Shown piece by piece: positions 23,136-38,979 of a DNA stretch of 41,632 bases. The translations under genes and the position numbers were made by a program. Each line of letters begins with the position of its first letter. Position 1 is the first letter of the stretch. The notes under the pieces are model-generated. The model made no database searches, was not told the DNA's origin, and saw only the letters and a list, made by a program, of their open reading frames with translations. This DNA comes from Escherichia phage K1H: sequence record NC_027994.1. One strand, 5' to 3'.

Positions 23136-23139
23136 AACT

Positions 23140-23163
23140 AAGGCCCCAAACGGGGCCTTTTCT
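23140..23163. terminator. Bidirectional intrinsic terminator
   Basis: GGCCCC-AAAC-GGGGCC plus TTTTCTC between convergent tailspike and leftward operon. Confidence 0.65.
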
Positions 23164-23367
23164 CTACCCTTCAGATAACTTCTCCAGTATGAACGCCAGT
23201 TGTGCATTAGCGGCGTCTCTTTGCTGCCGTAGTCGTAGAATCTCTTCTTCTAGTTCCTTGATACGTTTTATTTCTCGCTTTAACTGCATAGCAAGAAGTT
23301 GCTCGCGGGCATTAAGAGCAGATTTTACCAATTCGTTGCAGGCGTCAATATCAAACTCATTATTCAT
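23164..23367 (-). CDS. Hypothetical coiled-coil protein
   Basis: 67 aa, last gene of leftward operon. Confidence 0.45.
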   Translation of the reverse strand: MNNEFDIDACNELVKSALNAREQLLAMQLKREIKRIKELEEEILRLRQQRDAANAQLAFILEKLSEG

Positions 23368-23549
23368 TTCTTACCTTCGCTTTTCTTGAAACTGCGCTTT
23401 ATATCCGGCAGCGTGTAGCACCGTGATTTTTCGTATTTACCGTCCGAGCTTACCAAAACAAAGCTGTTGCCGTCTTTTGATATGTACTCGATGGCGAAAA
23501 TATTAAATGAATGTACGCTGTATATTTCATCGCCAACATTAAGTTTCAT
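23364..23549 (-). CDS. Hypothetical protein
   Basis: 61 aa, overlaps neighbours by 4 nt. Confidence 0.45.
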   Translation of the reverse strand: MKLNVGDEIYSVHSFNIFAIEYISKDGNSFVLVSSDGKYEKSRCYTLPDIKRSFKKSEGKK

Positions 23550-24979
23550 TTCTTACCTCGTCTCTTCATGTAATTAAGCAACTCTTCCTGTACAGATTTC
23601 TTCTCGTCGGTTCGCGCGGCAACAACTTCGTCCAGCGTGTCTTTAGCAACGATGTGGTACAGGAACACCGGCCTCTCGTGTCCTGCCTGTTTCTGGCGGA
23701 CCGGGCCTATTCGCTCGACAACCTGCAAATAGTGTTCAAGATTCCAGCCTTGCGAGATGAACGCCAGATGGTGTCCGCCGTCCTGTAAATTCAAACCATG
23801 ACCGGCTGACGCAGGGTGGACGCACAAAATCTCGATTTCGCCGCGGTTCCATGCTTCCATCTGCTTATTACCCTTAGCACCTTTCGCGAATGCCTGCGCC
23901 TGCGGGAAACGTTTCAGGATACGCTCCAGTTCGTGCTTGAACTGATAGGCTACCAGTAGCGGAGCACCCTGTAACTCCTCAACAATTGACTCCAGCGCAT
24001 CCAGTTTCGTGTCGTGCACTTTCTCCCAGTCTTTGGTTGCTTCTCCGTCTGGCCCTGATACATACACAGCACCAGAAGCAATCTGCAAACACTTTGACGT
24101 CTTTGCCGCGGCGTTAGCCGCTTCAACTTCTCCGCTTTCCAGTTCCGCGAATAACTTTTCCTCCATATCGATGTACGCCTGACGCGCCTTCTTCGGCAGG
24201 TCGATTTCAACCGGTACAATAATCGGCGCTTCGCAACCAAACCACTCGGCGGCGTCAATCGTGAGACTAATGTCTTTCATCTTCTGATGAATCTCATTAT
24301 CCGCACCCGGTCGTGCGTGATACTCCCGCGCCATCGCGGATTTCCCTTTCTGTACCGAGTTAAACCAGCGGTCTGTGAATGCCGTGTACGAAGAACCAAG
24401 GCAACCAAGGCGCTCGCCAGCGTCGATAAACCAGTTCTGCCCCCACAAGTCCTTGAGGCCGTTCGGCGACGGTGTGCCTGTCAGGTTAATGAAACGCTTA
24501 ACCTTTCCGAACGCCACTTTGCTTAGCGCCTTAGCCCGTTTGCTTCCTCCAGAACGGCTACGGAAAGATTTCAGCTTCGTGCTCTCATCAGCAACGATAA
24601 CCGTAAAAGGCCAGTCGTCTTTGCCGTAGTAGTCAATCAGCCACTCGATAACTTCGTAGTTTGTGCACACCACGTTAGCATCTGACTCCAGCGCCGCGAT
24701 ACGGCGCTTCTCTGAACCGGTTGCGTCTACGACACTCAGACAGGGGAAGTTCCAACGTGCCTGTTCCGCGGGCCACGTACCTGACGCAACACGTAAAGGA
24801 GCCAGAATTAACACTCGGTCGTCGTCATTAAGTTGCCCATTACGGAACAGCCGATTGAGAACCCACAACGTTGACCCCGACTTACCGCTGCCCATGCTCG
24901 CCCAGATATTGCAGCGATGGTGCCGCAGCATGAACGAAGTCATGAGCTTCTGGTATTCGCGCCTTTGAAACTTACTCAT
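23546..24979 (-). CDS. SNF2/DEAD-like superfamily II helicase
   Basis: 477 aa; Walker A-like SMGSGKS, DExx box VADEST, C-terminal helicase motifs. Confidence 0.75.
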   Translation of the reverse strand: MSKFQRREYQKLMTSFMLRHHRCNIWASMGSGKSGSTLWVLNRLFRNGQLNDDDRVLILAPLRVASGTWPAEQARWNFPCLSVVDATGSEKRRIAALESDANVVCTNYEVIEWLIDYYGKDDWPFTVIVADESTKLKSFRSRSGGSKRAKALSKVAFGKVKRFINLTGTPSPNGLKDLWGQNWFIDAGERLGCLGSSYTAFTDRWFNSVQKGKSAMAREYHARPGADNEIHQKMKDISLTIDAAEWFGCEAPIIVPVEIDLPKKARQAYIDMEEKLFAELESGEVEAANAAAKTSKCLQIASGAVYVSGPDGEATKDWEKVHDTKLDALESIVEELQGAPLLVAYQFKHELERILKRFPQAQAFAKGAKGNKQMEAWNRGEIEILCVHPASAGHGLNLQDGGHHLAFISQGWNLEHYLQVVERIGPVRQKQAGHERPVFLYHIVAKDTLDEVVAARTDEKKSVQEELLNYMKRRGKK

Positions 24980-25796
24980 TTACCGCCCCCATAAACGCCT
25001 TTATAAATTCGGCGGCTACTTGCGGGACGATGGCATTGCCGTAACCGCGCAATCGTCCCACTCTGGCGGGTATCCCATTAGCCAGCGGGAATGCGCCGGG
25101 TTCAACCGGCCGGAACTTTCCATCACGGCATCCGAGCCAGTCAGCATCTGACCAGAAGCCGTGGTGCGGGTTGGTTGACTCGCTTTCAATCCCTGCTCTG
25201 TTGAGTAGTCCAGCCTGTCGAATGTTCTGTCCCTCCCGTCCGTGCGAATCACTGTCTCTCCGCTCCCTCTGAAGTCGTTCGCTGTCGGTGTAGGCCAGTT
25301 CGTGCGCGCCAAAGAAGAGTCGTTCTCTTTTGTGCGGTGCGCCGACGCTACAAGCTGGGAGTACAGCAAACCCGACGGCGTAGTCTTCTCCTTCCAGGTG
25401 AGCTTGTAAATCGCACATCCACGATTTTGCAATTGCTGCCGCAACCTGCTCCCCAAAGATGACTGGAGGGCGGCACTCGCTGATGAGGTCGAGGAAGACC
25501 GGCGCGAGGTGTCTCGGGTCGAACTGTCCGAGTTGCTTTCCCGCCGCGCTAAACGGTTGGCAAGGCGGGCTTCCCGTCCAGAGAGGCGCATCTTCCGGAA
25601 CTCCCGCAAGTCTGAGCGCGAGAGGCCAGCCGCCGATACCCGCGAAAAAATGACACTGGGTGAACCCGTCAAGGTCTTCTGGCTTAACTTCGGTAATGCT
25701 TCTTTCATCTACAACTCCAAAAGGTATGTGACCCTGTTTTATCAACTCACGCAGCCACGCGGCTGCGCCTTTATCCCATTCATTGTAATAGTTCAT
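24972..25796 (-). CDS. DNA (cytosine-5)-methyltransferase (orphan)
   Basis: 274 aa; motif I FAGIGG and motif [13 protein letters not shown] (catalytic Pro-Cys); no adjacent restriction endonuclease. Confidence 0.7.
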
Positions 25797-25984
25797 TTCG
25801 CCACCAGAACTAACTCTTTACGCCCGAACGCCGTAACGTTACCGGTTACATCTTCGATAACCAGTTTACCGTTCGACTCGACGAACACCGTATCAACGGC
25901 AACAGGTTGACGTGTCTTAACGTTGAAAATCATGTCACCCGGTACGATGTCACGTGCTGGTTTGCGGTCATATTCGTGTTTCAT
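25793..25984 (-). CDS. Hypothetical protein
   Basis: 63 aa; first gene downstream of class-2 promoter at about 26018-26046. Confidence 0.45.
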   Translation of the reverse strand: MKHEYDRKPARDIVPGDMIFNVKTRQPVAVDTVFVESNGKLVIEDVTGNVTAFGRKELVLVAK

Positions 25985-26014
25985 TTCTCAATTCCTTATA
26001 TTGTTGGTGTAGGA

Positions 26015-26314
26015 CTAACTATAATAGCTAGCTATTAGGTCGTCAACCTGTTTAAACGAACCAACGACAAAAACATTCGCACCACGTTTACGCATCCGCT
26101 CATGTTCCCGTAGCTGGTGCGGGTCTGGCTTCGTGTTCTCGTCTTTCTTAACCTCGACGAACCAGACTATGCCGCCGGGGAGAATTACCAGCAGGTCTGG
26201 GGCGCCGGAACGCCCCTCGTAGGAGAGTTTGCGAACGAGGCCGCCAAGGGCCTCGAATCGGTCTTTTGCGTATTTCTGTACGCGGCCCTCTTTAGTCATG
26301 AGCGTAGATCCCAA
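26015..26314 (-). CDS. VRR-NUC domain nuclease (putative)
   Basis: PD-(D/E)XK-like ...PDLLVILPGG...VEVKK; likely true start is the ATG 5 codons in (ATGA overlap with upstream small ORF). Confidence 0.55.
   Translation of the reverse strand: MGSTLMTKEGRVQKYAKDRFEALGGLVRKLSYEGRSGAPDLLVILPGGIVWFVEVKKDENTKPDPHQLREHERMRKRGANVFVVGSFKQVDDLIASYYS
26018..26046 (-). promoter_or_regulatory. Sigma70-like promoter, class 2 (TTGACG-N17-TATAGT) with perfect 16-bp palindrome TAATAGCTAGCTATTA
   Basis: Minus-strand -35 at about 26041-26046 and -10 at about 26018-26023; overlaps 3' end of VRR-NUC gene. Confidence 0.55.
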
Positions 26315-26447
26315 GTAATGAAAGCCCCGCCTAGAACGGCGACACCGGCAAACTTAAAGAACAGGCCATAACAGAACATCGCGGCTATTCCTGCACCGAG
26401 TAGCAGTGCGAGCATGGTTACTATCACCCGAAATACGAACATTGTCA
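26296..26447 (-). CDS. Small membrane protein (about 49 aa, two hydrophobic segments)
   Basis: ATG preceded by GGGAGGGG SD; stop overlaps VRR-NUC ATG; coordinates approximate (+/-2). Confidence 0.35.
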
Positions 26448-26651
26448 TAATACGCACCCCTCCCGTTTGGTATGCTCAATTCCGCAGCGCGGGCAGATTC
26501 GACAGTCTTCTTCATAAAACCAGTAAATTTTCATTCCAGCACCCACAGATAAATTGCGATGAACATGCCCAATATGGCAACCATCATGACGTATTGACCC
26601 TCGTGACAGTAGACACCGGCAGCAAATCCCGCCAGTACCGCGATAATCAGT

Positions 26652-28832
26652 TTACTTGGCATAACGCTTCATCTCCGCGCCTTCTGCTACAAGAGGGAAC
26701 CCCTCGGCCCACTCTGGTAATTCGCACATCAATCGTTCCAGTTCTGCGACATTGTATTCTGGTAAATCTGGTGTCTCGCAGATAATCTCATCGTGAACAT
26801 GAAGCACAATCGGGTAGCCGTTTGCTTCGACGTTCAGCAGTGCATTAGCCAACAAATCACGGCACAGCGCCTGAGTGCAGTTTTCCACGAGTTTACCGGA
26901 ATATGTGTACTGGAAGCCCCACTGACGGGTTAACTGGTTTTCGCCCTGGTACTTGATGCGCACGTTGGTAGACACCTTCCCGTCTTCGTCTGTCTCTTTC
27001 GACACGCTTAGCCCAACACCCGGATAAGACATAACGCGGCCCGACGGCAACGTCATCCGCAACCACCAACCGGCGACTTTGTTGCCGTTGTTGTCCGTTT
27101 CTACGTTGCGCGAAAACTTAACTCCCCGCGGCCCTGCGGTGAACTCTTTGCCCGGATTGCGGATAGCTGCCATAGCTGCGTCTTCAATATCCCGCCAGAA
27201 AGCTACTGTTTCCGGGTGTGACTCACGCCACATACGCTTGATAGCGTCGCAGGTACGCCACACTTTCTTATCAAGAATATAAGATGGTCGGTCATCATTT
27301 TCACCTGGACGTGGTGGTCGCTTGGCTTCCTGAATACGCGCCCACTCATATCCACGTGCGGTAGCAGCCCAGATGTGGTCGGGGAAAGTCCCGTCCATTG
27401 TTTTTGTCATATCAACAAGGTCAAGGCCGAGGTTCTTGGCGAACTGTACGAATGCGCCGACACCCCCCGCGTAGCCAAGTCCAAGTTCGCATGCCTTACC
27501 AATCTGGCGTAAGTCTTTACGTTCTTTCTTAATGTAATCCGGCTCCATGCCGAACATCTTGCCTGCGGTTACGCAGTAAATATCCAGCCCGGCACGGAAC
27601 GTATCAAGCGCGGTTTCTTCGCCAGCCAGCCACGCCAAACCGCGGCCTTCAACGTTCGAGTAGTCGGCGACGACAAACTTATGTCCGGCTTCCGGGATAA
27701 TGCAGCTGCGAACCGTAGATGCCGTTAGCTTGGCTACATCAAAACGGCGATGTGCTCGGCCCTTAAGTAATGCTGAAATACCTTTATCCAGTTCATCATC
27801 GTGATAGTACCCACGCGCCAGGTTCTGCGGCTGGAAGCCTTTACCCGCAAATCGTAACGTACGTTTAGCTCCACCATACTGGATGCAACCGCGACGGCGG
27901 TCGTCAGACGAGCGGCCTAACAGCAGCGGGTTATATTTCGTTGACGCAGTGGATGCCGCCCCGAGGCGCATTTCTATAATCGTGCGGGCGTCGTCCGGTA
28001 AATCATCGTCAGCAAGCAGGTCGTTAAGCGTTGACTTCTGCGCGTTGTGGATGCGATGCGCAGGCGCCAGTTCACGCAGAATCGGCAGGAAGTCCTTACC
28101 TGTAAGCGAGCCGCCGTATTTACGTTGGGCTTCTTCCTGTAACTGTGCCTTGTGTTTCTCCACAGCTTCAATTGCGGCTTCCGCCAGCGCAACGTCGACC
28201 TTAAACCCGCGGTCGTTAATTAACTGGTCCAGTTCCAGTACACGGTCTTCGAACTCGGAGTTACCCCAACGCGGCAACTTATGGAACACTTCACGCATCG
28301 CGGTGATGTCGCTAACGGCGTACTTGATGAACAGCGCCCACTCATCCGGGTGCGTTTCAGCAGTGTAGCGGCGAATTTTGTAGTTCTTCGGCGTCGGTTT
28401 AGAGAAACGCTGAATAAGCGCTTTGCCTCGTTTGTCTTTCGCGTTGTCTGCAGACACGCCAAGCACTTCGCACAATGCGTCGAGTGAACCCGGCAGCGCG
28501 TGACGAAACGCCCAAATCATCGTATCAATGGTGTTGCTTACGGGAATATCAAAACCCCAGCAGTGCTTCATGATGAGTCTGTCGAACATTGAGCCGTTGT
28601 GCCACACCATCTTAATACGGCTGTTTGGTTTCACCAGACGGCGTAACGCGCGGTGCAAATCACCCGGCATGTCGCTGCCGTTGGTGCAATCCCATACCTG
28701 CACAGGCTCGTCGTCAAAAGCATATGTGCAGATTAGAACTTCGGTGGTTGGATGTTCGGCGTAAGCGTAGGAGCCGACTTTCTTCAAATCGGCTTCGGAG
28801 AATGTTTCAAAGTCTAAGAACAGGTAACTCAT
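26652..28832 (-). CDS. DNA polymerase I-like (family A) with 3'-5' exonuclease domain
   Basis: 726 aa; N-terminal DFETFSE exonuclease motif; size and position in replication module. Confidence 0.85.
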   Translation of the reverse strand: MSYLFLDFETFSEADLKKVGSYAYAEHPTTEVLICTYAFDDEPVQVWDCTNGSDMPGDLHRALRRLVKPNSRIKMVWHNGSMFDRLIMKHCWGFDIPVSNTIDTMIWAFRHALPGSLDALCEVLGVSADNAKDKRGKALIQRFSKPTPKNYKIRRYTAETHPDEWALFIKYAVSDITAMREVFHKLPRWGNSEFEDRVLELDQLINDRGFKVDVALAEAAIEAVEKHKAQLQEEAQRKYGGSLTGKDFLPILRELAPAHRIHNAQKSTLNDLLADDDLPDDARTIIEMRLGAASTASTKYNPLLLGRSSDDRRRGCIQYGGAKRTLRFAGKGFQPQNLARGYYHDDELDKGISALLKGRAHRRFDVAKLTASTVRSCIIPEAGHKFVVADYSNVEGRGLAWLAGEETALDTFRAGLDIYCVTAGKMFGMEPDYIKKERKDLRQIGKACELGLGYAGGVGAFVQFAKNLGLDLVDMTKTMDGTFPDHIWAATARGYEWARIQEAKRPPRPGENDDRPSYILDKKVWRTCDAIKRMWRESHPETVAFWRDIEDAAMAAIRNPGKEFTAGPRGVKFSRNVETDNNGNKVAGWWLRMTLPSGRVMSYPGVGLSVSKETDEDGKVSTNVRIKYQGENQLTRQWGFQYTYSGKLVENCTQALCRDLLANALLNVEANGYPIVLHVHDEIICETPDLPEYNVAELERLMCELPEWAEGFPLVAEGAEMKRYAK

Positions 28833-28845
28833 TATTTTTGACCCT

Positions 28846-28872
28846 TAGTAAAAAGGCCCAATGAAGGGCCTT
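28846..28872 (-). terminator. Intrinsic terminator/attenuator between SSB-like gene and DNA polymerase
   Basis: GGCCC-N6-GGGCC followed by TTTTT on minus strand. Confidence 0.45.
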
Positions 28873-28891
28873 AGTTAAATTGATTCAGATA

Positions 28892-29518
28892 TTAGCGACG
28901 ACGACGCTCGCGGCGCGGTGCTTCATCTTCTTCGTCGTCTTCCAGGTCATTTACGCTGGCAGCGACTTTAGAACCGCCAAACGCTTTGCCTTCGCCAATG
29001 TATTTAATCGCCAGCAGGTTAACGCCGAGGACTTTATATTTCTGACTGAACCAGATTTCAACGCTTACGTTAGCGACGCAGCCGCTGTAAACCTGTTCAC
29101 CTTCAATCTGTTCGCCGTCTACATTGAAGTCCTGTTCTACCTGAGTCTCGCCTTTTTTAGAGGTTACAATCAGTGGCTGTTTCTGTGCCTTCGCCTTGAA
29201 GTAGAAGCCTTCCGGGAAGTCTTCAAACGGATTGTCGCGCTCGGCAATGTCTTTAATCGCACATTTATCCATGTGCTTACCTTCGCCGTAGTTGGACTTC
29301 ATCCACTTCTCAGCGGCAGCTGCGCCCAACGCTTCTTCAACCACAGCGTAAACGGTGTCGTAGAGCGCGTCGATTTGTGCGTGGTCAGACGGCAGGATGA
29401 TAGTCGCGCTGTACTGGCCTTTAGTGATTGAGCCATCATCGTTTTCACGGTCTTTTTCGCGTTCGAATACGTTAACCCATGCAGTGTTTACTTTACGCAG
29501 ATTCAGTTTAATACCCAT
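28892..29518 (-). CDS. Single-stranded DNA-binding protein-like (DUF2815-like, tentative)
   Basis: 208 aa; acidic C-terminal tail (DLEDDEEDE); position between nuclease and polymerase. Confidence 0.45.
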   Translation of the reverse strand: MGIKLNLRKVNTAWVNVFEREKDRENDDGSITKGQYSATIILPSDHAQIDALYDTVYAVVEEALGAAAAEKWMKSNYGEGKHMDKCAIKDIAERDNPFEDFPEGFYFKAKAQKQPLIVTSKKGETQVEQDFNVDGEQIEGEQVYSGCVANVSVEIWFSQKYKVLGVNLLAIKYIGEGKAFGGSKVAASVNDLEDDEEDEAPRRERRRR

Positions 29519-29571
29519 CGTGATTTCTCGCTTTTCAGTTTACTCCGGGAACTGCCCGGCCAGTGATTAGA

Positions 29572-29600
29572 ACTATAATAGCTAACTATTCAGGTGTCAA
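29572..29600 (-). promoter_or_regulatory. Sigma70-like promoter, class 2 (TTGACA-N17-TATAGT) with dyad TAATAG-CTAA-CTATTC
   Basis: Minus-strand -35 at 29595-29600, -10 at 29572-29577. Confidence 0.55.
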
Positions 29601-29604
29601 CACT

Positions 29605-30870
29605 TTATTCCGAATCTTCTTCACTAACCTGATTCCACTCAGGACGTTTGTCGTCTGCCGTTGCGACACATGGTGCGCCTGGCTTACGGGTAATAAACGG
29701 CTCAAGCGCTGCCATCTCATCCGCCGAAAGAACTTTTGCTGCCTCCGTAGGGGTCATCAATACCTCTTTTTTGAGAATGTCGCCGTGTGACACTTCAATC
29801 GCATCGGCATCTTTCCACGCACGATTACCCTGGCGGCCTTCTACCAGTTTGTACCCTGGCACTTTCTTACCGGAATGCAATGCGGCGGACATCGCTTTCT
29901 CAACCTTGTCGATGTGCTGGCGCAACAGCGGCAACTTCTCATACTCAACTACGAGTTGCTCCGTCGTCAGTTCCAGCACAAAGTCGTCTTCAAGTTCTTC
30001 CGCCAGTACAGAATTAACCGTCTTTGTACGCGCGGCACACTGTTCAGAGAACCGGCACCACTGGCAACCATCTACTGACGGCTTAAAGTCTGACGCTTTC
30101 AGGTTCTTCTTACCGCGGAAATATGCATCAAGTGCTAACAGTGCTCGTTTTTGTGCGAACTTAGCGAACAGTTCCAGGCCTTCAACCGAGATATCCCACT
30201 CCGACGCACCCCCAGCGTACGGCTGGAAGATGACCAGACGAACAGTTGTTATGTTATAACGTCTCTTGAGTCGGCGATAGACACCGAGCGCGTAAAGCAT
30301 AAGCTGCTTGTTTTCTTTCGCTTCGACGCGATGCCGTCCTGTTTTCAGGTCACCAATAATGAGCATGTGCTCGTCGGTGTTTGCCAGTTCCTGTACGGCA
30401 ACAAGGTCAGCAGTTCCGAACGTTTCAACGCCTTCGTAGCCTGGGTGCAACACCTCAGTAAGATTGACGCGCATTTCCAGCTTAGCGTAAGTCGCTACAT
30501 CAATAATCGCTTTGCAGTAGTCGGTGTACTTGCGCACCTGCTCAATCATGTCCGTCGTAATCAGTACCGCGCCTTTCATTGGGCTGATTAGCGCCTTAAT
30601 CTGGCCTTTACCCTCATCCAGCACATAAGCGCCAACTTCACGCTCTAATGGCAGAGCAGTGCCTTTGATGTACTGGTTAAGGTGCATCTCCGCTATGGTG
30701 TGGCATGCAGTCCCTGTAACGGCGGCTTTACCAGACGTGTTGGGAATATCTTTCTCACAGGCCAGTGACGCACTGCACGCCAGCCACTTTTTAGCGCCAG
30801 ACGGCGACAGTAAGGCGTGCACATCGTTATTGCCGCCGCGTTCCTTTAAAATCATACCCTGCTCTCCCAC
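29605..30870 (-). CDS. PD-(D/E)XK family nuclease (DUF2800-like, Cas4/RecB-type with C-terminal Cys cluster)
   Basis: 421 aa; N-terminal LSPSGAKKWLAC..., C-terminal CQWCRFSEQC cluster. Confidence 0.6.
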   Translation of the reverse strand: MGEQGMILKERGGNNDVHALLSPSGAKKWLACSASLACEKDIPNTSGKAAVTGTACHTIAEMHLNQYIKGTALPLEREVGAYVLDEGKGQIKALISPMKGAVLITTDMIEQVRKYTDYCKAIIDVATYAKLEMRVNLTEVLHPGYEGVETFGTADLVAVQELANTDEHMLIIGDLKTGRHRVEAKENKQLMLYALGVYRRLKRRYNITTVRLVIFQPYAGGASEWDISVEGLELFAKFAQKRALLALDAYFRGKKNLKASDFKPSVDGCQWCRFSEQCAARTKTVNSVLAEELEDDFVLELTTEQLVVEYEKLPLLRQHIDKVEKAMSAALHSGKKVPGYKLVEGRQGNRAWKDADAIEVSHGDILKKEVLMTPTEAAKVLSADEMAALEPFITRKPGAPCVATADDKRPEWNQVSEEDSE

Positions 30871-31124
30871 TGGTCAATTAAATGTCGTGTCTTATGGTCG
30901 CAGTGCATAGCCCAGCCATACATCGACTCGAAGACGTAAAAGTCCGGTTTGGCGAAAGTCGTGCGCTTAATATGTGACACGTGGCGGCCTATGTCTTTAG
31001 GCCGTGGCACTTTGCCTAAGTACGCCATATCTTCCATCTGGTGCGAGCCAGACGGCGCACGTAACAGCCATAGCGCCTCTGTGCTATCCCTCCTGTCTAC
31101 GGCGCGGTAGAGTTGGTAAATCAT
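30852..31124 (-). CDS. Hypothetical protein
   Basis: 90 aa; GAGGG SD; hairpin upstream. Confidence 0.45.
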   Translation of the reverse strand: MIYQLYRAVDRRDSTEALWLLRAPSGSHQMEDMAYLGKVPRPKDIGRHVSHIKRTTFAKPDFYVFESMYGWAMHCDHKTRHLIDQWESRV

Positions 31125-31167
31125 AATCCCGACCCTCAGTTAAAGCGGCCCGAAGGCCGCGGGATAA

Positions 31168-31686
31168 TTATTCTTCTTCGAAATACTTGTTCTTGATTGC
31201 CGTCAGGCGTTCCAGGTATTCGGCAAGGTCTTCGTCTTTAATCGCGGCAATCTTCATCTTCTTACCGGTGAACTCTTCCAGCAGTTCATCGGAATCATCG
31301 CACGCGGCGTCGCTCGGACCTTCGTTAATTGCATCGTCGATAGCCTGAATCTGGTCACGCAGAGACTGGTAATCTACTTCTTCCTTCTCTTCCGGTTCTG
31401 GCGTCGGTTCCTCTACTTTAGATTTACGCGGCTTGCGTTTCGGCTTCTCTTCTTCTGCTGGTTTAGTGTCGACGATGTCTTCACCTTCAACCGGGATTTC
31501 TTTCGCCTTCTCGACTTCTTCAAGTGCTTTAGCCAGTTCTTTTTTAACTGTCTCTACCCCAGTTACCGCGACGTCAACAGTCAATTCACCTACAGATTTG
31601 CTAGTCGGTTGTTTCACACTGTTTGCAGCAATCAGTTCGTGGGCGACTACGAAACGTTCCAGTAATACCAAGAATTTCTCTAACAT
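31168..31686 (-). CDS. Highly acidic early protein (function unknown)
   Basis: 172 aa, very rich in Glu/Asp with short lysine-rich patch; first gene of leftward operon from class-2 promoter; GAGGAG SD. Confidence 0.5.
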   Translation of the reverse strand: MLEKFLVLLERFVVAHELIAANSVKQPTSKSVGELTVDVAVTGVETVKKELAKALEEVEKAKEIPVEGEDIVDTKPAEEEKPKRKPRKSKVEEPTPEPEEKEEVDYQSLRDQIQAIDDAINEGPSDAACDDSDELLEEFTGKKMKIAAIKDEDLAEYLERLTAIKNKYFEEE

Positions 31687-31717
31687 TTGTTTCTCTCCTC
31701 TCGTTTGGTATGTGTTA

Positions 31718-31747
31718 ACTATAATAGCGAACTATTCACGTTGTCAA
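31718..31747 (-). promoter_or_regulatory. Sigma70-like promoter, class 2 (TTGACA-N18-TATAGT) with dyad TAATAG-CGAA-CTATTC
   Basis: Minus-strand -35 at 31742-31747, -10 at 31718-31723. Confidence 0.55.
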
Positions 31748-31751
31748 TGGG

Positions 31752-31782
31752 CTTTTCTAAAATAATTAATATGGTACTATTC
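31752..31782 (+). promoter_or_regulatory. Weak plus-strand promoter (-10 TACTAT, poor -35) with dyad TAATAT-GGTA-CTATTC
   Basis: TACTAT at 31775-31780; overlaps the divergent class-2 promoter; AAGGAG SD before ATG 31812. Confidence 0.4.
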
Positions 31783-31811
31783 ACATATCAACTGACTAAG
31801 GAGTAATTGAC

Positions 31812-32027
31812 ATGCAACCATCTGAACTAGGCATCCGTGTAGAACAGCGCCGTAAAGAACTCGGCATTTCCCAACGCCGTCTGGCTGTCCTGGCCGGTGT
31901 TTCCCAGGGCGCGATTAACCAGCTGGCACTCGGTGTAACTAAGGACGTCCGCCCAGCGACGCTGTTTAAACTGGCGGAAGTGCTAGAGGTAGACGCCAAG
32001 TGGCTGGCGTTCGGTGAAGGGGCTTAA
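31812..32027 (+). CDS. XRE-family (Cro/CI-type) HTH transcriptional regulator
   Basis: 71 aa; RRKELGISQRRLAVLAGVSQGAINQ... typical HTH_XRE helix-turn-helix. Confidence 0.7.
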   Translation: MQPSELGIRVEQRRKELGISQRRLAVLAGVSQGAINQLALGVTKDVRPATLFKLAEVLEVDAKWLAFGEGA

Positions 32028-32042
32028 CGCCCCTTTCTTTTT
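32018..32042 (+). terminator. Intrinsic terminator after HTH gene
   Basis: GGGGC-TTAAC-GCCCC plus TTTCTTTTT; stop codon lies in loop. Confidence 0.55.
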
Positions 32043-32044
32043 GC

Positions 32045-34312
32045 CTATTCTAAATCCTCCTCTGTCACTGTTAACAGTTCATTCGGTTCGTATATCGTCT
32101 TCGGAATCTTGTTATCAGTTATCCGGGTGTTCAGCCTGTAACGGCCAGGGATTATCTGATTGTTTTCGTCAGTCCCCGGAACAAGATACCCAGCCTCAAC
32201 CATTTTCTTAATCTTCCCGCGTTCTATGGCTTCTTTGGAGTTAAACGCCTTTGCATTGGGGTCAGACTGTGCGAGCTTATTAGCGGCGGCGACTGTGATG
32301 CCTTCGTTGCCGTTGTAGGTTCCTTCCGCCAGTTCAAACGCCGCCAGTATCGTGGCTTCTGAACTGTTGACGGCGTTCTCTATGGTTTTACGTACGTTTT
32401 CTTTACCTTCTTTCGTCAACCCTTCTTCCCGCTCTTTCTCCTCGTCAGTCTTGAACGGCTCGAAACCCCACGGCATTAACACAAGTGCCTTATGCGGCTC
32501 CGGCAGGTCGAGGTTTACGATTGTGCCGTATTCCTCCGTGCTACCGAGGAACTCAACCGCACGGTACTCTTTCGGCGGCGGCGCTTCACGGAACTGTACA
32601 GACTCCAGCACCATACCAACCGTCTTCTGTTGAGGCCCGTGCTTGAATTTCGAGTGGTATACATTTATCTGGCGGTCGGTAGCTCGTTCGATTGTCAGTT
32701 CCACGTCGACGCCAGCATACAGCGCCCCACTGCCACGGGCTTTCTTTCCGCCCTTCGGCGTATGGTGGACAACGCCTACCGCAGCTTTAGTCGCGTCACG
32801 TACTTCTTTCAGGATGGCGATAACCTTACCCATGCCGATTGCCGTTGATGAACTGTTCTCGTCGAACTTATCAATCGTCAGGGCTAGCGTCTGGTTGAGG
32901 GTGTCGAACGCAACCATGCCGATGGGTTCGTCACCCGCAGTTTCACGCATCAACTTAATCAGGCTTTTCAGTTTTCCGACTTCGCCCATGTCGATGACAT
33001 GTACATAATCTTTACCTTCCTCGCTATACTTAGCTGCGAGCGCATCGATACGGGTGCGTGTAGCTGCGCCGCCCTCACCGTCGATATAAAAATGGTGGCA
33101 ACGCTGCGTATCTGCCCCCGCAAACCGGTATCCGGCGGCGCTCAGGTACATCATCCCCAGCGTATAGAACGATTTGTACGTTCCGGATTCCCCGACAATA
33201 TCCCAGATACAATCTGACGGCATGTACCCTTCAACGACGAAATCCGCCTTTACCGGTTCCGGTAACTCGTCATCCTCTGAGTCCTCGTCATCTTCCAGGT
33301 CGTCGAGGCTGCATGAAACAGATTCACGTGCACCCCATCCGATGGCCTCTGCGACTTCACTGAACGGCAGCCCCGTCGCATCGCACGCATACTTCCACAC
33401 CTCTTTCGGTGACATGCCTTCGGTCGCCGTAATGTCAGTGTCGTGAATCATGGTTACGTTCGGCGCCTCATATCCCTCTCGCGGGAAGCACAGCAGGAAG
33501 TCATCCGGGCGCGGCGTCGGGTCGCTGTAGTTTTCTGCGTGTTCTGGCGTAGCTGGCATCTTAAGGCCTCGTGGCGTCATGATACCGCCATACTCGAACG
33601 CCAGTGCCTCGAACGCGTCGGTAAACGCGGTGCGCAGTTCTTCCGGTATCTGGTAATCCGATGCGCTGCTAACGTCAACGGCAGGGATGCCTTCCAGTAA
33701 CTCGTCCGGGTCAATCAGGTCGTTGCGGCGTGACCAGATAACGGTAGAGCCAACCGGAGGCAGGTACATCGGTTGCGAAAGAGTGAACCCGCTGCGGTCA
33801 GCACCCATGCTTTTGAAGAAGTGTTCCAGCAATCCATGGCGAACACGGATGATGTCACCACCTTCGACCGGACGGGCCAGCGGCATGACGACGCGAAAGC
33901 GCGGGGACTCGTCGGTATGTGATGCCGTGGTATAGATACACATGCCCCGGCGGCTGCGTTTAACTAAGCGCACCGCTTCCTGATACTCTTCTGGTGTTGC
34001 GCTGTCGAAGTCCAGATACGCCAGCGACGATTTGCTTACAGACGCGTCACAGCGATAGAAAAAGCCTTTACGCGCTTGCTTAAAGTCGCCGGTTTCCGGG
34101 TCTTTTACAGTGCTGTGCGTCGAGTCGCACGCGGCGGTGATATAACCGGGCGCGGTCTTCGGGTTAATTCCGTCACGGACAGCATCGAGTGGCTGGATTA
34201 ACTCTTTCAGGTCGTCCAGTGTTGCCGTGTGTGTGGTTCTGACGTTTATATCCTTTTTCTCTGCCCGCGCGTTGCGACGTGACCACGAGTAGGATAAAAT
34301 TACATCGGACAT
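32045..34312 (-). CDS. DNA primase/helicase-like replication protein
   Basis: 755 aa; central RecA/P-loop-like segment GESGTYKS and hhhhD motif VAFDTL; assignment by size and context. Confidence 0.65.
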   Translation of the reverse strand: MSDVILSYSWSRRNARAEKKDINVRTTHTATLDDLKELIQPLDAVRDGINPKTAPGYITAACDSTHSTVKDPETGDFKQARKGFFYRCDASVSKSSLAYLDFDSATPEEYQEAVRLVKRSRRGMCIYTTASHTDESPRFRVVMPLARPVEGGDIIRVRHGLLEHFFKSMGADRSGFTLSQPMYLPPVGSTVIWSRRNDLIDPDELLEGIPAVDVSSASDYQIPEELRTAFTDAFEALAFEYGGIMTPRGLKMPATPEHAENYSDPTPRPDDFLLCFPREGYEAPNVTMIHDTDITATEGMSPKEVWKYACDATGLPFSEVAEAIGWGARESVSCSLDDLEDDEDSEDDELPEPVKADFVVEGYMPSDCIWDIVGESGTYKSFYTLGMMYLSAAGYRFAGADTQRCHHFYIDGEGGAATRTRIDALAAKYSEEGKDYVHVIDMGEVGKLKSLIKLMRETAGDEPIGMVAFDTLNQTLALTIDKFDENSSSTAIGMGKVIAILKEVRDATKAAVGVVHHTPKGGKKARGSGALYAGVDVELTIERATDRQINVYHSKFKHGPQQKTVGMVLESVQFREAPPPKEYRAVEFLGSTEEYGTIVNLDLPEPHKALVLMPWGFEPFKTDEEKEREEGLTKEGKENVRKTIENAVNSSEATILAAFELAEGTYNGNEGITVAAANKLAQSDPNAKAFNSKEAIERGKIKKMVEAGYLVPGTDENNQIIPGRYRLNTRITDNKIPKTIYEPNELLTVTEEDLE

Positions 34313-34370
34313 GTTGTATTTCCTTCAGCAAGTAATTTGGCCTCGGCGTTCACCGCGTCGGGGCTTTCTT

Positions 34371-34691
34371 TTATTCCAGGTCGTGGGAGATATTACCCTC
34401 GGGCACCAACACTTTTCCAATACTTCTCGCTTTCTCTGTAATAGGCGTCGCTCTTGTTGCCCGATAAAACTTTCCTTTATTAAGAATCTCACCATGTCGC
34501 TCGAGCACATCTAAAGCATGTTTGATCGGGTTTACACCGTAATTATCCAACCGGTATCTCCGAAGCCCGTCTACCGTAAAAGCGCCGTTCGCTTCGGTCA
34601 GTCTGCGTGCACACATTAATATGTGTTTCTGGAATTTAGTTAGCATCTTTAACGTTCTCCTTAATCCACGCCTCCACAGTAGCGCGGTCAA
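34371..34691 (-). CDS. Hypothetical protein
   Basis: 106-aa track ORF overlapping upstream gene by 56 nt; true start probably an internal ATG. Confidence 0.4.
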   Translation of the reverse strand: MTALLWRRGLRRTLKMLTKFQKHILMCARRLTEANGAFTVDGLRRYRLDNYGVNPIKHALDVLERHGEILNKGKFYRATRATPITEKARSIGKVLVPEGNISHDLE

Positions 34692-34815
34692 AGGTACCTG
34701 GCTGACGGTAGCCGTTAATAACCCGGCAACACTCAGGGAACTTACCCGACCGCAGCCAGCGATTAAGCGTCATAGGAGAAACTCCGATTAAGTCTGCTAC
34801 TTCTTTCTGTGTCAT
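34636..34815 (-). CDS. AlpA/excisionase-family HTH DNA-binding protein
   Basis: 59 aa from ATG 34815 (AGAGGG SD); MTQKEVADLIGVSPMTLNRWLRSGKFP... matches AlpA-like pattern. Confidence 0.55.
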   Translation of the reverse strand: MTQKEVADLIGVSPMTLNRWLRSGKFPECCRVINGYRQPGTFDRATVEAWIKENVKDAN

Positions 34816-34844
34816 TTTACACGCCCTCTTTATCAAGTGAAACA

Positions 34845-34873
34845 ACTATAACACCCACAATAGCCAAACACAA
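34845..34873 (-). promoter_or_regulatory. Putative minus-strand promoter (TTGTGT-N17-TATAGT)
   Basis: TATAGT -10 as in class-2 promoters; 23 nt upstream of AlpA-like ATG. Confidence 0.35.
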
Positions 34874-34877
34874 CCTA

Positions 34878-34905
34878 TTGACAAAATAAAATGTAGCTGT
34901 AAAAT
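34878..34905 (+). promoter_or_regulatory. Strong sigma70-like promoter (TTGACA-N16-TAAAAT)
   Basis: Consensus -35, near-consensus -10; faces a 390-nt region lacking any ATG. Confidence 0.55.
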
Positions 34906-35236
34906 CAATGTATCGAAGGACCTTAATTCAGAATTACTTAGAAACATCATTCTTAAGTCTCGGGTACTTAAAGCCCCGCCCTAAAGCGGGGCGCTAAACA
35001 GTACTCTTGGTAACGTTAGTATCTAAGTTTCCTCAAAGTAACAGCAAGTAGCAAGAAAGCCTCCGTCTATTTAAATTTTACCCTCCTTCATAAGCTACTG
35101 ATAATTAAAAGTTTCTATAGTTGCCGTAAGCGAGGTAGAGAGTACTTCACTCCGCTGGGGTGGGCTAACGCCCACCCACTGCGTTGCGTACTCCTTTAAG
35201 AAACGAAAGAATCACAACGGCAACGTAACTATTCTC

Positions 35237-35267
35237 TTGCACACCCCAACATAATAGGATACTATTC
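35237..35267 (+). promoter_or_regulatory. Sigma70-like promoter, class 1 (TTGCAC-N17-TACTAT) with dyad TAATAG-GATA-CTATTC
   Basis: -35 35237-35242, -10 35260-35265; about 30 nt upstream of first early-right gene. Confidence 0.55.
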
Positions 35268-35299
35268 ACTTATCGGAACGAGACAGAGGAGTGAGGGTT

Positions 35300-35497
35300 A
35301 TGTTTAAGAATGGTCAGTTGGTTAAATGCGCCGACGGTGAACACGGCATAATTGAATTAAAATCTGCTTTATTTCCAGGAAAGTACGTAGTTACCGTGCA
35401 AAATGTGAGAGGAGTAAATTCACAAATATACGTAGCGGAGGAGAACTTAAAACTCATCGGCAACAATTTTAAATTTAAAGGGGGGAGGGTGAAGTGA
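35300..35497 (+). CDS. Hypothetical early protein
   Basis: 65 aa from ATG 35300 (GAGGAG SD); track start GTG 35291. Confidence 0.5.
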   Translation: MFKNGQLVKCADGEHGIIELKSALFPGKYVVTVQNVRGVNSQIYVAEENLKLIGNNFKFKGGRVK

Positions 35498-35706
35498 TGG
35501 AAGAATTATTTGAAGAACTGAAACATCATGATTTCGAGGAAATATATTTCGTAGCTGAACGCTACGAGGTGCATTTATCGGACGTGATTACAATTATAAC
35601 GATGGATAGCCAGCAAATGCTAAATAGCTTACGAGCAATACGAGCAATACGAACGGCATCGAATCATGATGCTTGTGCCGACGACGCTGAGGGAGGTTGC
35701 CGTTAA
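35494..35706 (+). CDS. Hypothetical early protein
   Basis: 70 aa, ATGA overlap with upstream gene. Confidence 0.5.
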   Translation: MMEELFEELKHHDFEEIYFVAERYEVHLSDVITIITMDSQQMLNSLRAIRAIRTASNHDACADDAEGGCR

Positions 35707-35909
35707 TGCGAATCCGTATAACTGACCGCAGGCTTATCCGTATAACTGACCGCAGGCTTATCCGTATAACTGACCGCAGGCTTATAGATTTCGGTATCTC
35801 GGTAGGTGATGTTTTTCCGGCGTTCAGCATCAACCATTATGGTTTTATGATTGAGTACAAAGGGTCGTTATTGTTCGTGTATCGGGATGAATGTGAGGTT
35901 CTGGTATGA
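35706..35909 (+). CDS. Small protein with triplicated RLIRITDR peptide repeat
   Basis: 67 aa from ATG 35706 (TAATG overlap, GGAGG SD 10 nt upstream); N-terminus encoded by three perfect 24-bp tandem repeats. Confidence 0.45.
   Translation: MRIRITDRRLIRITDRRLIRITDRRLIDFGISVGDVFPAFSINHYGFMIEYKGSLLFVYRDECEVLV
35712..35785. repeat. Tandem direct repeat, 3 perfect copies of 24 bp (ATCCGTATAACTGACCGCAGGCTT)
   Basis: Read directly from sequence: copies at 35712-35735, 35736-35759, 35760-35783, followed by a 2-bp partial copy. Confidence 0.9.
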
Positions 35910-36061
35910 GAGAAGCATTTGAACGGTGGGCTGTGGTCGAGGGTCTGCCGGTTAACAAGGGTTCAAAGAAAGAGTACCTGAACGTTAAGACGCGTCTCGC
36001 GTGGCGGGCGTGGAAAGCTGGTGTGCAATCCTTGATTGAAAGAGGTGTGAGGTATGGGTGA
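35906..36061 (+). CDS. Hypothetical small protein (51 aa)
   Basis: ATGA overlap with upstream and downstream genes; below ORF-track size cutoff. Confidence 0.35.
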   Translation: MREAFERWAVVEGLPVNKGSKKEYLNVKTRLAWRAWKAGVQSLIERGVRYG

Positions 36062-36254
36062 GTGGATTAAGTGTAGTGAGATGCTGCCGGGTAATGGGTA
36101 TACGGATAAAGAGTTCCTGGTGTATGAAACGTTAAATAACGCAGTTCAGCACGATTATTACATAGTTCCTGATGACGGGAGAAAGCCTTTCTGGAATCAC
36201 TACGATAAGTACGTGACGCACTGGATGCCGTTACCCGAGCCGCCAGAAGTGTGA
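36054..36254 (+). CDS. Hypothetical protein
   Basis: 66 aa, translationally coupled. Confidence 0.5.
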   Translation: MGEWIKCSEMLPGNGYTDKEFLVYETLNNAVQHDYYIVPDDGRKPFWNHYDKYVTHWMPLPEPPEV

Positions 36255-36388
36255 TGTTCAATAGTTTGGGATTTTACTGAGTGACTTACGCTGCTACACA
36301 GCAGCGTACAACTTTAACTTAGTGTCGTCAAAAGGCGACACTTTCATCAAACGCAACAATCGAAGCGACTATTGCAGGAGATGCAACA

Positions 36389-36562
36389 ATGATTACTAAA
36401 GAACAGGCTGAACGACTAATCACGTTAATCGACACGATGGTTGATGCGAAAACCGATTTAGCAACGGCAACAGAGGAATCCGCTACCTGGTCGCTTGAAG
36501 AAAGAGAAGCAGAAGCGGAAAGGGAGTTACTGGCGTTCATCGACTCTATAACACACCAATAA
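36389..36562 (+). CDS. Hypothetical small protein (57 aa)
   Basis: AGGAG SD 8 nt upstream of ATG; acidic helical protein; antisense track ORF 36328..36540 judged spurious. Confidence 0.4.
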   Translation: MITKEQAERLITLIDTMVDAKTDLATATEESATWSLEEREAEAERELLAFIDSITHQ

Positions 36563-36569
36563 AATTTAC

Positions 36570-36600
36570 TTGCACACTAAGATAGAATAGGCTACTATTC
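36570..36600 (+). promoter_or_regulatory. Sigma70-like promoter, class 1 (TTGCAC-N17-TACTAT) with dyad GAATAG-GCTA-CTATTC
   Basis: -35 36570-36575, -10 36593-36598; perfect 6-bp half-sites. Confidence 0.55.
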
Positions 36601-36628
36601 ATTTACACAAGCGAGAGGGGAGACAGAG

Positions 36629-36766
36629 ATGGGCTGGTACGGTAGCTGGACTTTAGGCGAACTGGTAGACGCTTACGAAATAATTAGTAGCGCTTCGGTG
36701 TGTGACGGCGACACTAAATCGCTGCTAGTCGGGGTGGATGAGAAAAGGGGTGAAGCTGATGAGTAA
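36629..36766 (+). CDS. Hypothetical small protein (45 aa)
   Basis: GAGAGGGGA SD; overlaps start of next gene. Confidence 0.35.
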   Translation: MGWYGSWTLGELVDAYEIISSASVCDGDTKSLLVGVDEKRGEADE

Positions 36767-37307
36767 CAAAAACGAAATATTCGAGTACCTGATCGACCAG
36801 CTACGGCAGCAGGTAAATAACAGCCGGAGCGAAGACCTGGCTCATGAGGTGCAGTCACTTAAGAATCAGTTACGTGATGCTTCGGTGCAGATTAAGGAGT
36901 TACATATGGCGCTGGCTACCGCCACCGGGGATGTAGAGGCTTACAAACTTGTGCGTAAGGGTGGGTACATTTCTAGGGGCCAGGGCTACGTGGTTGGCGA
37001 ACATGCGCCCGGGCCAACGGTAAATTGTCGGTGCACCCAGACGCCTGTACCGCCGGAGCAATCTGGTTGCCGTAAAGAAGATACCCAGGAATGCGAGCAC
37101 TCTTGGATTATTATGCCTGGGTTGTTTCTCAGCGAAGGCAATCCGAACAACGTTCCTGGTAGCGAGCTTTGCTCTAAATGTGGTAAACGTGAGTGGGACG
37201 ACAAGGAATATAAACCGAAAAACGATACTCAGGAATGTGATCATGATTGGGTTCTTGATGCCGACGAGGATTATTTTGTGTGCCGCAGATGTGGAGAGAC
37301 GACATGA
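36759..37307 (+). CDS. Cys-rich (zinc-ribbon-like) protein with N-terminal coiled coil
   Basis: 182 aa from ATG 36759; paired Cys motifs CRC, CSKCG, CRRCG plus ECEH/ECDH. Confidence 0.5.
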   Translation: MSNKNEIFEYLIDQLRQQVNNSRSEDLAHEVQSLKNQLRDASVQIKELHMALATATGDVEAYKLVRKGGYISRGQGYVVGEHAPGPTVNCRCTQTPVPPEQSGCRKEDTQECEHSWIIMPGLFLSEGNPNNVPGSELCSKCGKREWDDKEYKPKNDTQECDHDWVLDADEDYFVCRRCGETT

Positions 37308-37507
37308 CCAGCATCTTATTTATCTGGGTGCTAACTGCTGGCCAGATGCAACTAGCGGCATCAGAAACGTTTTATTCGATGGAGGCGTGCCAGTCAGCGG
37401 CACGCGCCGCAGAGAACGCGCACTTCCTGTTTCAGGGCGACAAGCCCAACGATTCGGAGGTACGCGCTATCTGCTCACCTAAGCGACTTGGTAAACAGGA
37501 GAAATAA
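37304..37507 (+). CDS. Small protein with N-terminal signal/TM segment
   Basis: 67 aa from ATG 37304 (ATGA overlap); MTSILFIWVLTAGQMQLAAS hydrophobic N-terminus. Confidence 0.45.
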   Translation: MTSILFIWVLTAGQMQLAASETFYSMEACQSAARAAENAHFLFQGDKPNDSEVRAICSPKRLGKQEK

Positions 37508-37800
37508 TGTCGTTAGCAACTGACATCCTGAAACGAAGCGGCCTTGCGCCGCTGTCGCCGAGAGCGAATACGCGTATACACAAGCGCCGCCGTAATGCAC
37601 TGTACCCCGAGATTCAGGCCAGACGCAAAGCGGTACGCGCCTGTGGATTCCAGAACGGGAAGGCTGTGAATCTCGGTGAGTTTAAAACACAGGAACGCGC
37701 AGCAATCGCTAATCGGCTATTTAATTACTGGAAATCGTTGGGATACGATGATATTCCGACGAAACCGCAGAGACGCCAATACATCTGGAGACATAAATAA
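37507..37800 (+). CDS. Hypothetical basic protein
   Basis: 97 aa, Arg/Lys-rich. Confidence 0.5.
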   Translation: MSLATDILKRSGLAPLSPRANTRIHKRRRNALYPEIQARRKAVRACGFQNGKAVNLGEFKTQERAAIANRLFNYWKSLGYDDIPTKPQRRQYIWRHK

Positions 37801-37831
37801 ACAACTATTAGGATAATTCCTACCCGTGGTA

Positions 37832-37869: not shown

Positions 37870-37875
37870 TTCATC

Positions 37876-38915: not shown

Positions 38916-38979
38916 CACCTAAGACCAATCAGACGATACTTAAATCACCTCCTGTCCCATCCCTCTGCTCTCCAGTTTT

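Follow-up and report, generated by a model that had tools for sequence, protein, structure and literature searches.

We analyzed a 41,632-nucleotide stretch of DNA (the window) from Escherichia phage K1H (NC_027994.1), centering on a promoter at positions 29572 to 29600 of its leftward replication block, on the inverted repeat AATAG-N4-CTATT (the dyad) within this promoter, and on a small gene for a Cro-like helix-turn-helix (HTH) protein that is a candidate to bind the dyad. Region 25000 to 33000 of the window had 98% identity to Escherichia phage K1G, with several hundred Kagunavirus and Jerseyvirus genomes related to it, and by sequence the window is a Kagunavirus (K1G-like, Guernseyvirinae). 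Members of the Guernseyvirinae are virulent siphoviruses. The gene map was taken from the records of K1G, AG11, RP180, and SP-031. Three promoters, here termed class A, and the Cro-like gene beside one of them lie in the window as follows.

29572 to 29600, minus strand: site 1, class A promoter, with -35 TTGACA (29600 to 29595), a 17-bp spacer, and -10 TATAGT (29577 to 29572)
29577 to 29590: dyad of site 1, AATAG-TTAG-CTATT, at about -25 to -12
29518 to 28892 and 28832 to 26652, minus strand: genes after site 1, for a DUF2815 SSB-like protein and DNA polymerase, respectively
26018 to 26046, minus strand: site 2, class A promoter, with -35 TTGACG (26046 to 26041), a 17-bp spacer, and -10 TATAGT (26023 to 26018)
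26023 to 26036: dyad of site 2, inside the perfect 16-bp palindrome TAATAGCTAGCTATTA (26022 to 26037)
26314 to 26015: VRR-NUC gene, the final codons of which contain site 2
25984 to 25793, minus strand: 63-aa open reading frame (ORF) after site 2, followed by genes for a methyltransferase and a helicase
31718 to 31747, minus strand: site 3, class A promoter, with -35 TTGACA (31747 to 31742), an 18-bp spacer, and -10 TATAGT (31723 to 31718)
31723 to 31736: dyad of site 3, a site divergent from the Cro-like gene
31686 to 31168, minus strand: gene for a 172-aa protein after site 3, followed by genes for a 90-aa protein and a PD-(D/E)XK exonuclease
31812 to 32027, plus strand: gene for a 71-aa HTH_3/XRE protein, 434 Cro-like, the candidate dyad-binding repressor, with ribosome-binding site (RBS) AAGGAG at 31799 to 31804
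32016 to 32036, plus strand: intrinsic terminator closing the Cro-like gene
31768 to 31781, plus strand: imperfect dyad AATAT-GGTA-CTATT, 30 nt upstream of the Cro-like start codon
31735 to 31763, plus strand: candidate promoter before the imperfect dyad, with TTCACG (31735 to 31740), a 17-bp spacer, and TAAAAT (31758 to 31763)

A sequence-only reading of the window had proposed three minus-strand promoters of the form TTGAC(A/G)-N17/18-TATAGT, each heading a sub-operon. All three are present exactly, the downstream gene blocks match the ORFs and annotations, and the dyad that it described, TAATAG-N4-CTATT(A/C) in plus-strand reading, occurs in each spacer. The same reading pointed to the perfect 16-bp palindrome at 26022 to 26037, which holds for the window; in most relatives, however, the center of this dyad is CGAA and nonpalindromic, so the extra symmetry is incidental. 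TTGAC-N17-20-TATAGT had three matches in the window, compared to 0.07 expected from shuffles, and the three class A sites were the best-scoring sigma70-like sites in region 23000 to 41632, matching 10 to 11 of 12 consensus positions. Their TTGACA-like and TATAAT-like hexamers have the 16- to 18-bp separation of sigma70-type promoters, and the final T of the right dyad arm doubles as the first T of the -10 hexamer. In the GenBank record of AG11, RpoD-like promoters are already marked at the orthologues of sites 1 and 2. For the dyad sites as a whole, we infer promoter status from consensus match, position, and conservation.

The sequence-only reading counted three repeats, which is correct for the class A copies but falls short for the dyad itself. 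A relaxed search and a palindrome census recovered seven exact copies of AATAG-N4-CTATT in the window, compared to ~0.04 expected. Among palindromes with 5-bp arms separated by 0 to 8 nt, this was the most frequent in the window (seven copies), K1G (six), RP180 (eight), and Jerseyvirus AG11 (five), and the census found zero copies in Cornellvirus SP-031. Six of the seven exact dyads are intergenic, in a window with a coding share of 91%, and the seventh is site 2, inside VRR-NUC. The dyad is thus a recurrent, over-represented symmetric site, as expected of a repressor operator. The four exact dyads outside class A (beginning at 4489, 13028, 35253, and 36586) have no TTGAC in the class A orientation; on the opposite strand, all four carry TTGCA(C/G)-17-TACTAT, with a Shine-Dalgarno sequence and ATG following 25 to 33 nt on. 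These candidate promoters (class B) are as follows.

4490 to 4518, minus strand: B1, with TTGCAG (4518 to 4513), a 17-bp spacer, and TACTAT (4495 to 4490); dyad at 4489 to 4502 (about -19 to -6)
Downstream of B1, minus strand: RBS, 33-aa hydrophobic ORF (4463 to 4362), and bidirectional terminator (4334 to 4353)
13029 to 13057, minus strand: B2, with TTGCAC (13057 to 13052), a 17-bp spacer, and TACTAT (13034 to 13029); dyad at 13028 to 13041
Downstream of B2, minus strand: 108-aa ORF (13000 to 12674) and genes for an exonuclease, a polynucleotide kinase, and an ATPase
35237 to 35265, plus strand: B3, with TTGCAC (35237 to 35242), a 17-bp spacer, and TACTAT (35260 to 35265); dyad at 35253 to 35266
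Downstream of B3, plus strand: rightward block of small early ORFs, first ATG at 35300
36570 to 36598, plus strand: B4, with TTGCAC (36570 to 36575), a 17-bp spacer, and TACTAT (36593 to 36598); dyad at 36586 to 36599
Downstream of B4, plus strand: 45-aa ORF (36629 to 36766) and further genes

We also read the four class B sites in the class A orientation (the dyad followed by TATGTT or TATATT) and rejected that assignment, since no conserved -35 was present, whereas the opposite strand fits at all four. An automated search placed an RBS and ATG 25 to 38 nt past the dyad, in promoter orientation, for six of the seven exact-dyad promoters and for the imperfect copy at 31768; the site 1 start codon at 29518 was read directly from the sequence. 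The dyad spans -25 to -12 in class A (center at ~-18.5) and -19 to -6 in class B (center at ~-12.5), i.e., 6 bp closer to the start, and our own alignment put the AG11 orthologue of B2 in a third register, at ~-15.5. Because its register relative to the -10 differs in class B, the dyad appears to be a separable module and not a part of RNA polymerase recognition.

Conservation upstream of the class A genes points the same way. We compared the upstream 110 nt, anchored on the three downstream proteins, in 35 IMG/VR loci plus K1G, RP180, AG11, and SP-031, which left 22, 19, and 20 distinct sequences for the three sites after removal of duplicates. Mean column entropy was 0.00 to 0.06 bit in the left arm and 0.00 to 0.15 bit in the right arm, compared to 0.76 to 1.02 bit in the central N4 and 0.00 to 0.15 bit in the rest of the -10. 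The arms therefore equal the -35 and -10 hexamers in invariance, and variation is seen in the transcribed flank and in the stretch separating the -35 from the dyad. Sigma70 makes no base-specific contacts in the spacer, where the left arm is located (-25 to -21), so the invariance of this arm calls for a reader other than sigma70. In Jerseyvirus AG11, the -35 (TTGATA or TTGCAT), the -10 (TATATT), the N4, and the flanks have all changed, and the arms are retained. At site 2, the third positions of CTA ATA .. TAT TAT in VRR-NUC showed no synonymous change among 20 distinct sequences, while the residues encoded by the N4 vary (S/N/H/D/G/R and A/E), indicating selection on the DNA and not on the protein. 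The sequence-only reading had argued that the second half-site is dispensable for sigma70 and that its conservation implies a dimeric DNA-binding factor. This argument is strengthened by the invariant arms and variable N4, and also by the arms kept in AG11, the register shift in class B, and the divergent Cro-like gene. Considering that the arms are under selection independent of both the polymerase elements and coding constraint, AATAG-N4-CTATT is very probably a protein operator.

Other features of these upstream regions differ among relatives. Within the 5' untranslated region (UTR) after site 1 lies a hairpin, CACTGGCCGGGCAGTTCCCGGAG (29530 to 29570, minus strand), which is kept in all relatives, including Cornellvirus, and may be an mRNA stability or translational control element for the SSB-like/polymerase operon. 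At the orthologue of site 2, five relatives (L006, L010, L017, L020, and L032) carry an inserted gene followed by a terminator directly upstream of the conserved RBS; at the orthologue of site 3, an inserted gene lies directly upstream of the conserved RBS in L005, L006, L007, L010, L016, L027, L029, L030, and L033 to L036. In relatives with an inserted gene, the dyad promoter is missing or has moved further upstream, so the number of sub-operon promoters appears to vary within the genus. In Cornellvirus SP-031 (L039), orthologous sigma70 promoters are kept with the dyad replaced (10960 to 11100, 33259 to 33300, and 7540 to 7580). A PHIRE-like scan of SP-031 intergenic sequence returned only a weak ATTAGTTTnnTAwTAT-like element and, possibly, a separate ACTAAT-N10-ATTAGT inverted repeat.

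The gene beside site 3 encodes a plausible reader of the dyad. Its 71-aa product matched Pfam HTH_3 (PF01381) at 47.2 bits against a cutoff of 23 (E = 2.2e-12); HTH_19 and HTH_31 also scored above their own cutoffs, and the protein matched PHROG "transcriptional repressor" families. The best PDB sequence match, end to end, was phage 434 Cro, which is also 71 aa long (E = 1.9e-7). An AlphaFold2 model (pLDDT 78.5) has the five helices of a lambda-repressor-like fold (residues 5 to 17, 21 to 28, 32 to 39, 48 to 57, and 62 to 66), the second and third of which make up the HTH, and its top Foldseek match was again 434 Cro (2cro; TM 0.74 to 0.80, 42% identity). Outside the subfamily, the nearest homologue belongs to Klebsiella phage GZ7: it is the Cro of a lambdoid CI-Cro-CII module, the gene for which adjoins 434-type 14-bp operators such as ACAAACAAGTTTGT; a homologue search with genomic context returned HTH relatives of at least 77% identity only. 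The Cro-like gene was present in 35 of 35 related loci covering the region, is carried by ~570 Guernseyvirinae genomes, and is annotated in AG11 and SP-031. It is unannotated in the K1G RefSeq and GenBank records, which hold the overlapping opposite-strand ORF39 in its place, and our analysis corrects the K1G RefSeq annotation by adding the HTH gene.

The operators bound by both 434 Cro and 434 repressor are symmetric 14-bp sites in which the outer arms are conserved and the center varies. The matching geometry and the adjacency of the Cro-like gene to dyads suggest that a dimer of this protein would bind the 14-bp dyad. The gene diverges from site 3 and from the gene for the 172-aa protein of unknown function. 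Between site 3 and the Cro-like start codon, a class-B-like -10 (TACTAT, 31775 to 31780) is overlapped by the imperfect dyad at 31768, which has the same imperfect form in nearly all Kagunavirus relatives. We regard this imperfect dyad as a putative autoregulatory operator, since an upstream region with both the perfect site 3 dyad and a conserved imperfect dyad has the layout of an autoregulated repressor. The 71-aa Cro-like protein is probably the dyad binder, an assignment that we hold with moderate confidence on the grounds of homology, geometry, and gene position.

In the mechanism that we propose, AATAG-N4-CTATT would be a 14-bp operator that overlies core elements in seven or more sigma70-type promoters, filling the spacer and touching the -10 in class A and covering the -10 in class B. 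A dimer of the phage's own Cro-like protein would bind the dyads and sterically exclude the host RNA polymerase. Rising levels of the protein would lower transcription of the class A operons (replication and recombination) and the class B operons (early small genes), and the protein would also turn down its own gene, acting at both site 3 and the imperfect dyad of 31768. Class A promoters should need no activator, given their 10 to 11 of 12 consensus match, and, provided that the protein binds, its effect is likely to be repression. Overall, these data somewhat favor a Cro-like repressor regulon acting to shut down both early and replication promoters. No CI-like gene, integrase, or tandem operator array was found in the window or its annotated relatives; the system would be Cro-like in action and is not a lambdoid immunity region. 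We also considered a MerR-type spacer activator and rejected it, as the spacers are of the optimal 17 or 18 bp and not 19 to 20 bp. A role at the RNA level was likewise rejected: the dyads lie upstream of the predicted starts, and their 5-bp A/T-rich stems are too weak. No Rfam matches were found in the window.

Several observations weigh against this regulon or against the Cro-like protein as its repressor. Class B promoters match the sigma70 consensus weakly (~7 of 12 positions, with TTG and TAnnnT kept), and their orientation rests on the RBS and ATG downstream. Kagunavirus (VSQGAINQLALG) and Jerseyvirus (VSQSLITHLATG) have different recognition helices, and their HTH proteins share 52% identity overall, yet the dyad arms are identical. 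Such divergence would be more natural if the arms were read by a conserved host factor, although 434 Cro and 434 repressor, about equally divergent from each other, share operators. Cornellvirus has kept the HTH gene (43% identity) with no AATAG-N4-CTATT and no clear substitute dyad; there, possible explanations are divergence of the operator or loss of the system. The one published Kagunavirus transcriptome sequencing (RNA-seq) time course, which is coarse, showed no clean early shut-off of the dyad operons (PMC12645636). The dyad might, moreover, be a real operator read by another phage protein, either the 59-aa HTH_17/AlpA-like protein (34636 to 34815, minus strand) or one of the small early proteins (35300 to 36254), which we consider unlikely. 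The HTH_17 protein exists and is conserved (~70% identity to AG11_47), most of the small early ORFs have no family assignment, and an HTH gene was among the four earliest-peaking genes in the same time course, in which time classes are given at the gene level and the numbering is not mappable with certainty; by gene order, this is probably the HTH_17 gene. The promoter of the HTH_17 gene, however, has no dyad and is swapped among relatives while the dyads elsewhere stay constant, whereas the Cro-like gene is dyad-flanked. HTH_17 and excisionase-type proteins are generally monomeric winged helices that act on direct or asymmetric sites, a binding mode ill-suited to a perfect 5-N4-5 dyad.

A conserved factor of the Enterobacteriaceae hosts could also bind the dyad and tie early and replication promoters to host physiology. 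Phages of Escherichia, Raoultella, and Salmonella share identical arms despite the divergence of the HTH protein, and variant half-sites (ACTAG in two sites of L025) occur with the HTH protein unchanged, both of which would fit such a factor. Nevertheless, at least seven sites over core promoters would leave the phage hostage to a host repressor, Cornellvirus also infects Salmonella and has no dyad, and a Cro-like gene that is divergent and flanked by dyads is the arrangement classically seen with a self-encoded, autoregulated repressor. We know of no E. coli regulator with this dyad consensus, and a host reader seems quite improbable. It is very improbable that no dedicated factor is involved, i.e., that the dyad is intrinsic to the promoter spacer, or was left behind when promoter cassettes were duplicated, and is tolerated or preferred by RNA polymerase. 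These cassettes are clearly paralogous, and the right arm falls immediately before or within the -10, where sequence can affect promoter strength; even so, the left arm is as invariant as the hexamers while the adjoining spacer bases and the N4 vary, the arms are kept across genera while the hexamers change, the dyad geometry is constant while its register relative to the -10 shifts, and the synonymous sites of the arms are frozen at site 2.

The remaining alternative, that the repeats are promoters for a phage-encoded RNA polymerase, is the published label and almost certainly wrong. Table S2 of the fBC-Eco01 paper (PMC9825357) assigns the label "Phage RNAP promoter" (PP1 to PP7) to seven PHIRE repeats, of consensus tgAATAGTa-ccTATTat-T, and the Golestan paper (PMC7203180) gives seven PHIRE promoters and two HTH proteins, which it leaves unconnected. 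These are the same repeated 20-mer in seven copies; both papers differ from our account in invoking a phage polymerase, and the dyad symmetry, sigma70 overlap, and HTH link go unmentioned. No RNA polymerase gene was found in the ORF lists of the window or in the annotations of K1G, AG11, RP180, and SP-031, so the label is untenable; in addition, the element is a perfect palindrome, hence directionless, and is embedded in canonical sigma70 -35/-10 pairs. Our literature search found no paper describing the dyad as an operator or linking it to the Cro-like gene.

Our best reading is therefore a repressor-operator regulon of the 434 Cro type in a virulent phage, a textbook kind of switch that is apparently undescribed for this phage group. 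The protein has the size (71 aa) and five-helix HTH fold of 434 Cro, and its gene, like that of 434 Cro, adjoins and diverges from a regulated promoter. The operators resemble those of 434 in being 14-bp and two-fold symmetric, with conserved outer arms and a variable center, and in overlapping sigma70 core elements. They differ in half-site (AATAG here, ACAA in 434) and in the lengths of arms and center (5 and 4 bp here, 4 and 6 bp in 434), and the recognition helix is SQGAINQ here and QQSIQL in 434. In place of the tripartite OR1-3 and OL1-3 arrays of 434, single operators are dispersed over at least seven promoters, and the virulent phage has no CI partner or integrase. The proposed role resembles that of lambda Cro at PL and PR, an early small repressor that lowers early transcription later in lysis, although lambda Cro is a winged helix with beta strands that binds 17-bp operators in two operator regions only. 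The P1 C1 regulon is similar in that one phage repressor acts on many dispersed promoters with a single operator each; P1 is temperate, however, and C1 is a large monomer on asymmetric 17-bp sites with no known kinship in sequence or fold. The controller (C) proteins of restriction-modification systems (C.AhdI and C.BclI), which the fold search placed among its top matches, are small HTH dimers of the XRE type that bind dyads in or beside promoters and autoregulate. Their genes lie immediately upstream of a restriction endonuclease gene and they use paired C-boxes, whereas the HTH gene here lies apart from the phage methyltransferase genes, and no partner endonuclease was seen.

Phages of the genera Kagunavirus and Jerseyvirus are commonly isolated and serve in therapy and biocontrol against E. 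coli K1, uropathogenic E. coli, and Salmonella, yet their transcriptional program is essentially uncharacterized and the repeat is mislabeled in the literature. The operator reading would provide an easily tested model for early, replication, and late timing with the host RNA polymerase only. It would also be an example of a lone Cro, without CI, kept as a genome-wide regulator in a strictly lytic lineage, and the compact repressor-operator pair with its graded set of strong promoters might be of use in phage engineering.

The dyad may do more than switch promoters off. A further promoter, included tentatively, lies back-to-back with B2 and precedes the tail-assembly genes.

13045 to 13072, plus strand: candidate tail-operon promoter, with TTGGGG (13045 to 13050), a 16-bp spacer, and extended -10 TGcTAGAAT (13064 to 13072)

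B1 to B3 share the block ATRTTGGKGTSTGCAA, whose two strands carry the class B -35 and a TTGGGG -35, respectively, and in three class B promoters the -35 hexamers are 1 bp from those of opposing promoters. The dyad center lies at ~-44.5 relative to the tail promoter start (~-42.5 in Jerseyvirus), and the -10 of this promoter and its ~85-nt leader are conserved in Kagunavirus, Jerseyvirus, and Cornellvirus. A Cro-like dimer over an early -10 could free the opposing promoter through relief of competition or could activate it directly. Lambda CI at OR2 likewise represses PR while activating PRM. That the dyad is the pivot of a bidirectional early-to-late switch, and not merely an off-switch, is a speculative idea that we consider rather doubtful. 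If it were true, one 71-aa protein would time the whole program of a virulent phage without its own sigma factor or RNA polymerase; no sigma factor is encoded in the K1G, AG11, RP180, and SP-031 records.

One-mismatch dyads numbered five in the window, three of them in promoter contexts (31768, 4580, and 39029). The two in addition to the autoregulatory candidate are as follows.

4585 to 4613, plus strand: promoter with TTGACT (4585 to 4590), a 17-bp spacer, and TAAGCT (4608 to 4613); one-mismatch dyad AATAG-TTGA-CTTTT at 4580 to 4593, over the -35
39034 to 39062, plus strand: promoter with TTGACT (39034 to 39039), a 17-bp spacer, and TATATT; one-mismatch dyad ACTAG-TTGA-CTATT at 39029 to 39042, over the -35

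The dyad at 4580 is also conserved in K1G and RP180, and the AG11 orthologue of the 39029 promoter is annotated as an RpoD promoter. It is possible that both are low-affinity operators. Another one-mismatch dyad, TATAG-TATG-CTATT (2787 to 2800), overlaps the start codon of the head-morphogenesis gene just past a terminator and is conserved in RP180; it is probably coincidental, a product of RBS, start codon, and coding sequence.

Further features border the class B and early promoters. The 33-aa hydrophobic ORF after B1, MMVAISFVLLVNLGLFVWAVSGVEDADSGNGEL (4362 to 4463, minus strand), is unannotated, has a strong RBS, and is antisense to the surrounding late genes; this cassette is missing from K1G. 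The HTH_17/AlpA/excisionase-like gene heads the leftward block, and its promoter cassette (near 34850 to 34900) has at least three unrelated versions in close relatives; in the version of the window, AATAG and CTATT are 11 bp apart (AATAG-N11-CTATT) and not 4 bp. Two noncoding stretches of ~200 to 260 nt, 4614 to 4816 (plus strand) and 34972 to 35235 (minus strand), carry near-identical terminators (TAGCGCCCCGCTTTARGGCGGGGCTTTA). Compared to shuffled sequences, 34972 to 35235 folded significantly better (z = -3.3), with z = -1.9 for 4614 to 4816, and neither had an Rfam match; these stretches may be phage small RNAs or leaders. The leader between the tail promoter and the start of the tail-assembly-chaperone gene (13073 to 13164) appears to form a long stem (GCGCC...GGCGC), inside which lies the hairpin CGGG-TGGTT-CCCG. 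In Cornellvirus, this stem has changes on both sides, and the leader may be a regulatory 5' UTR.

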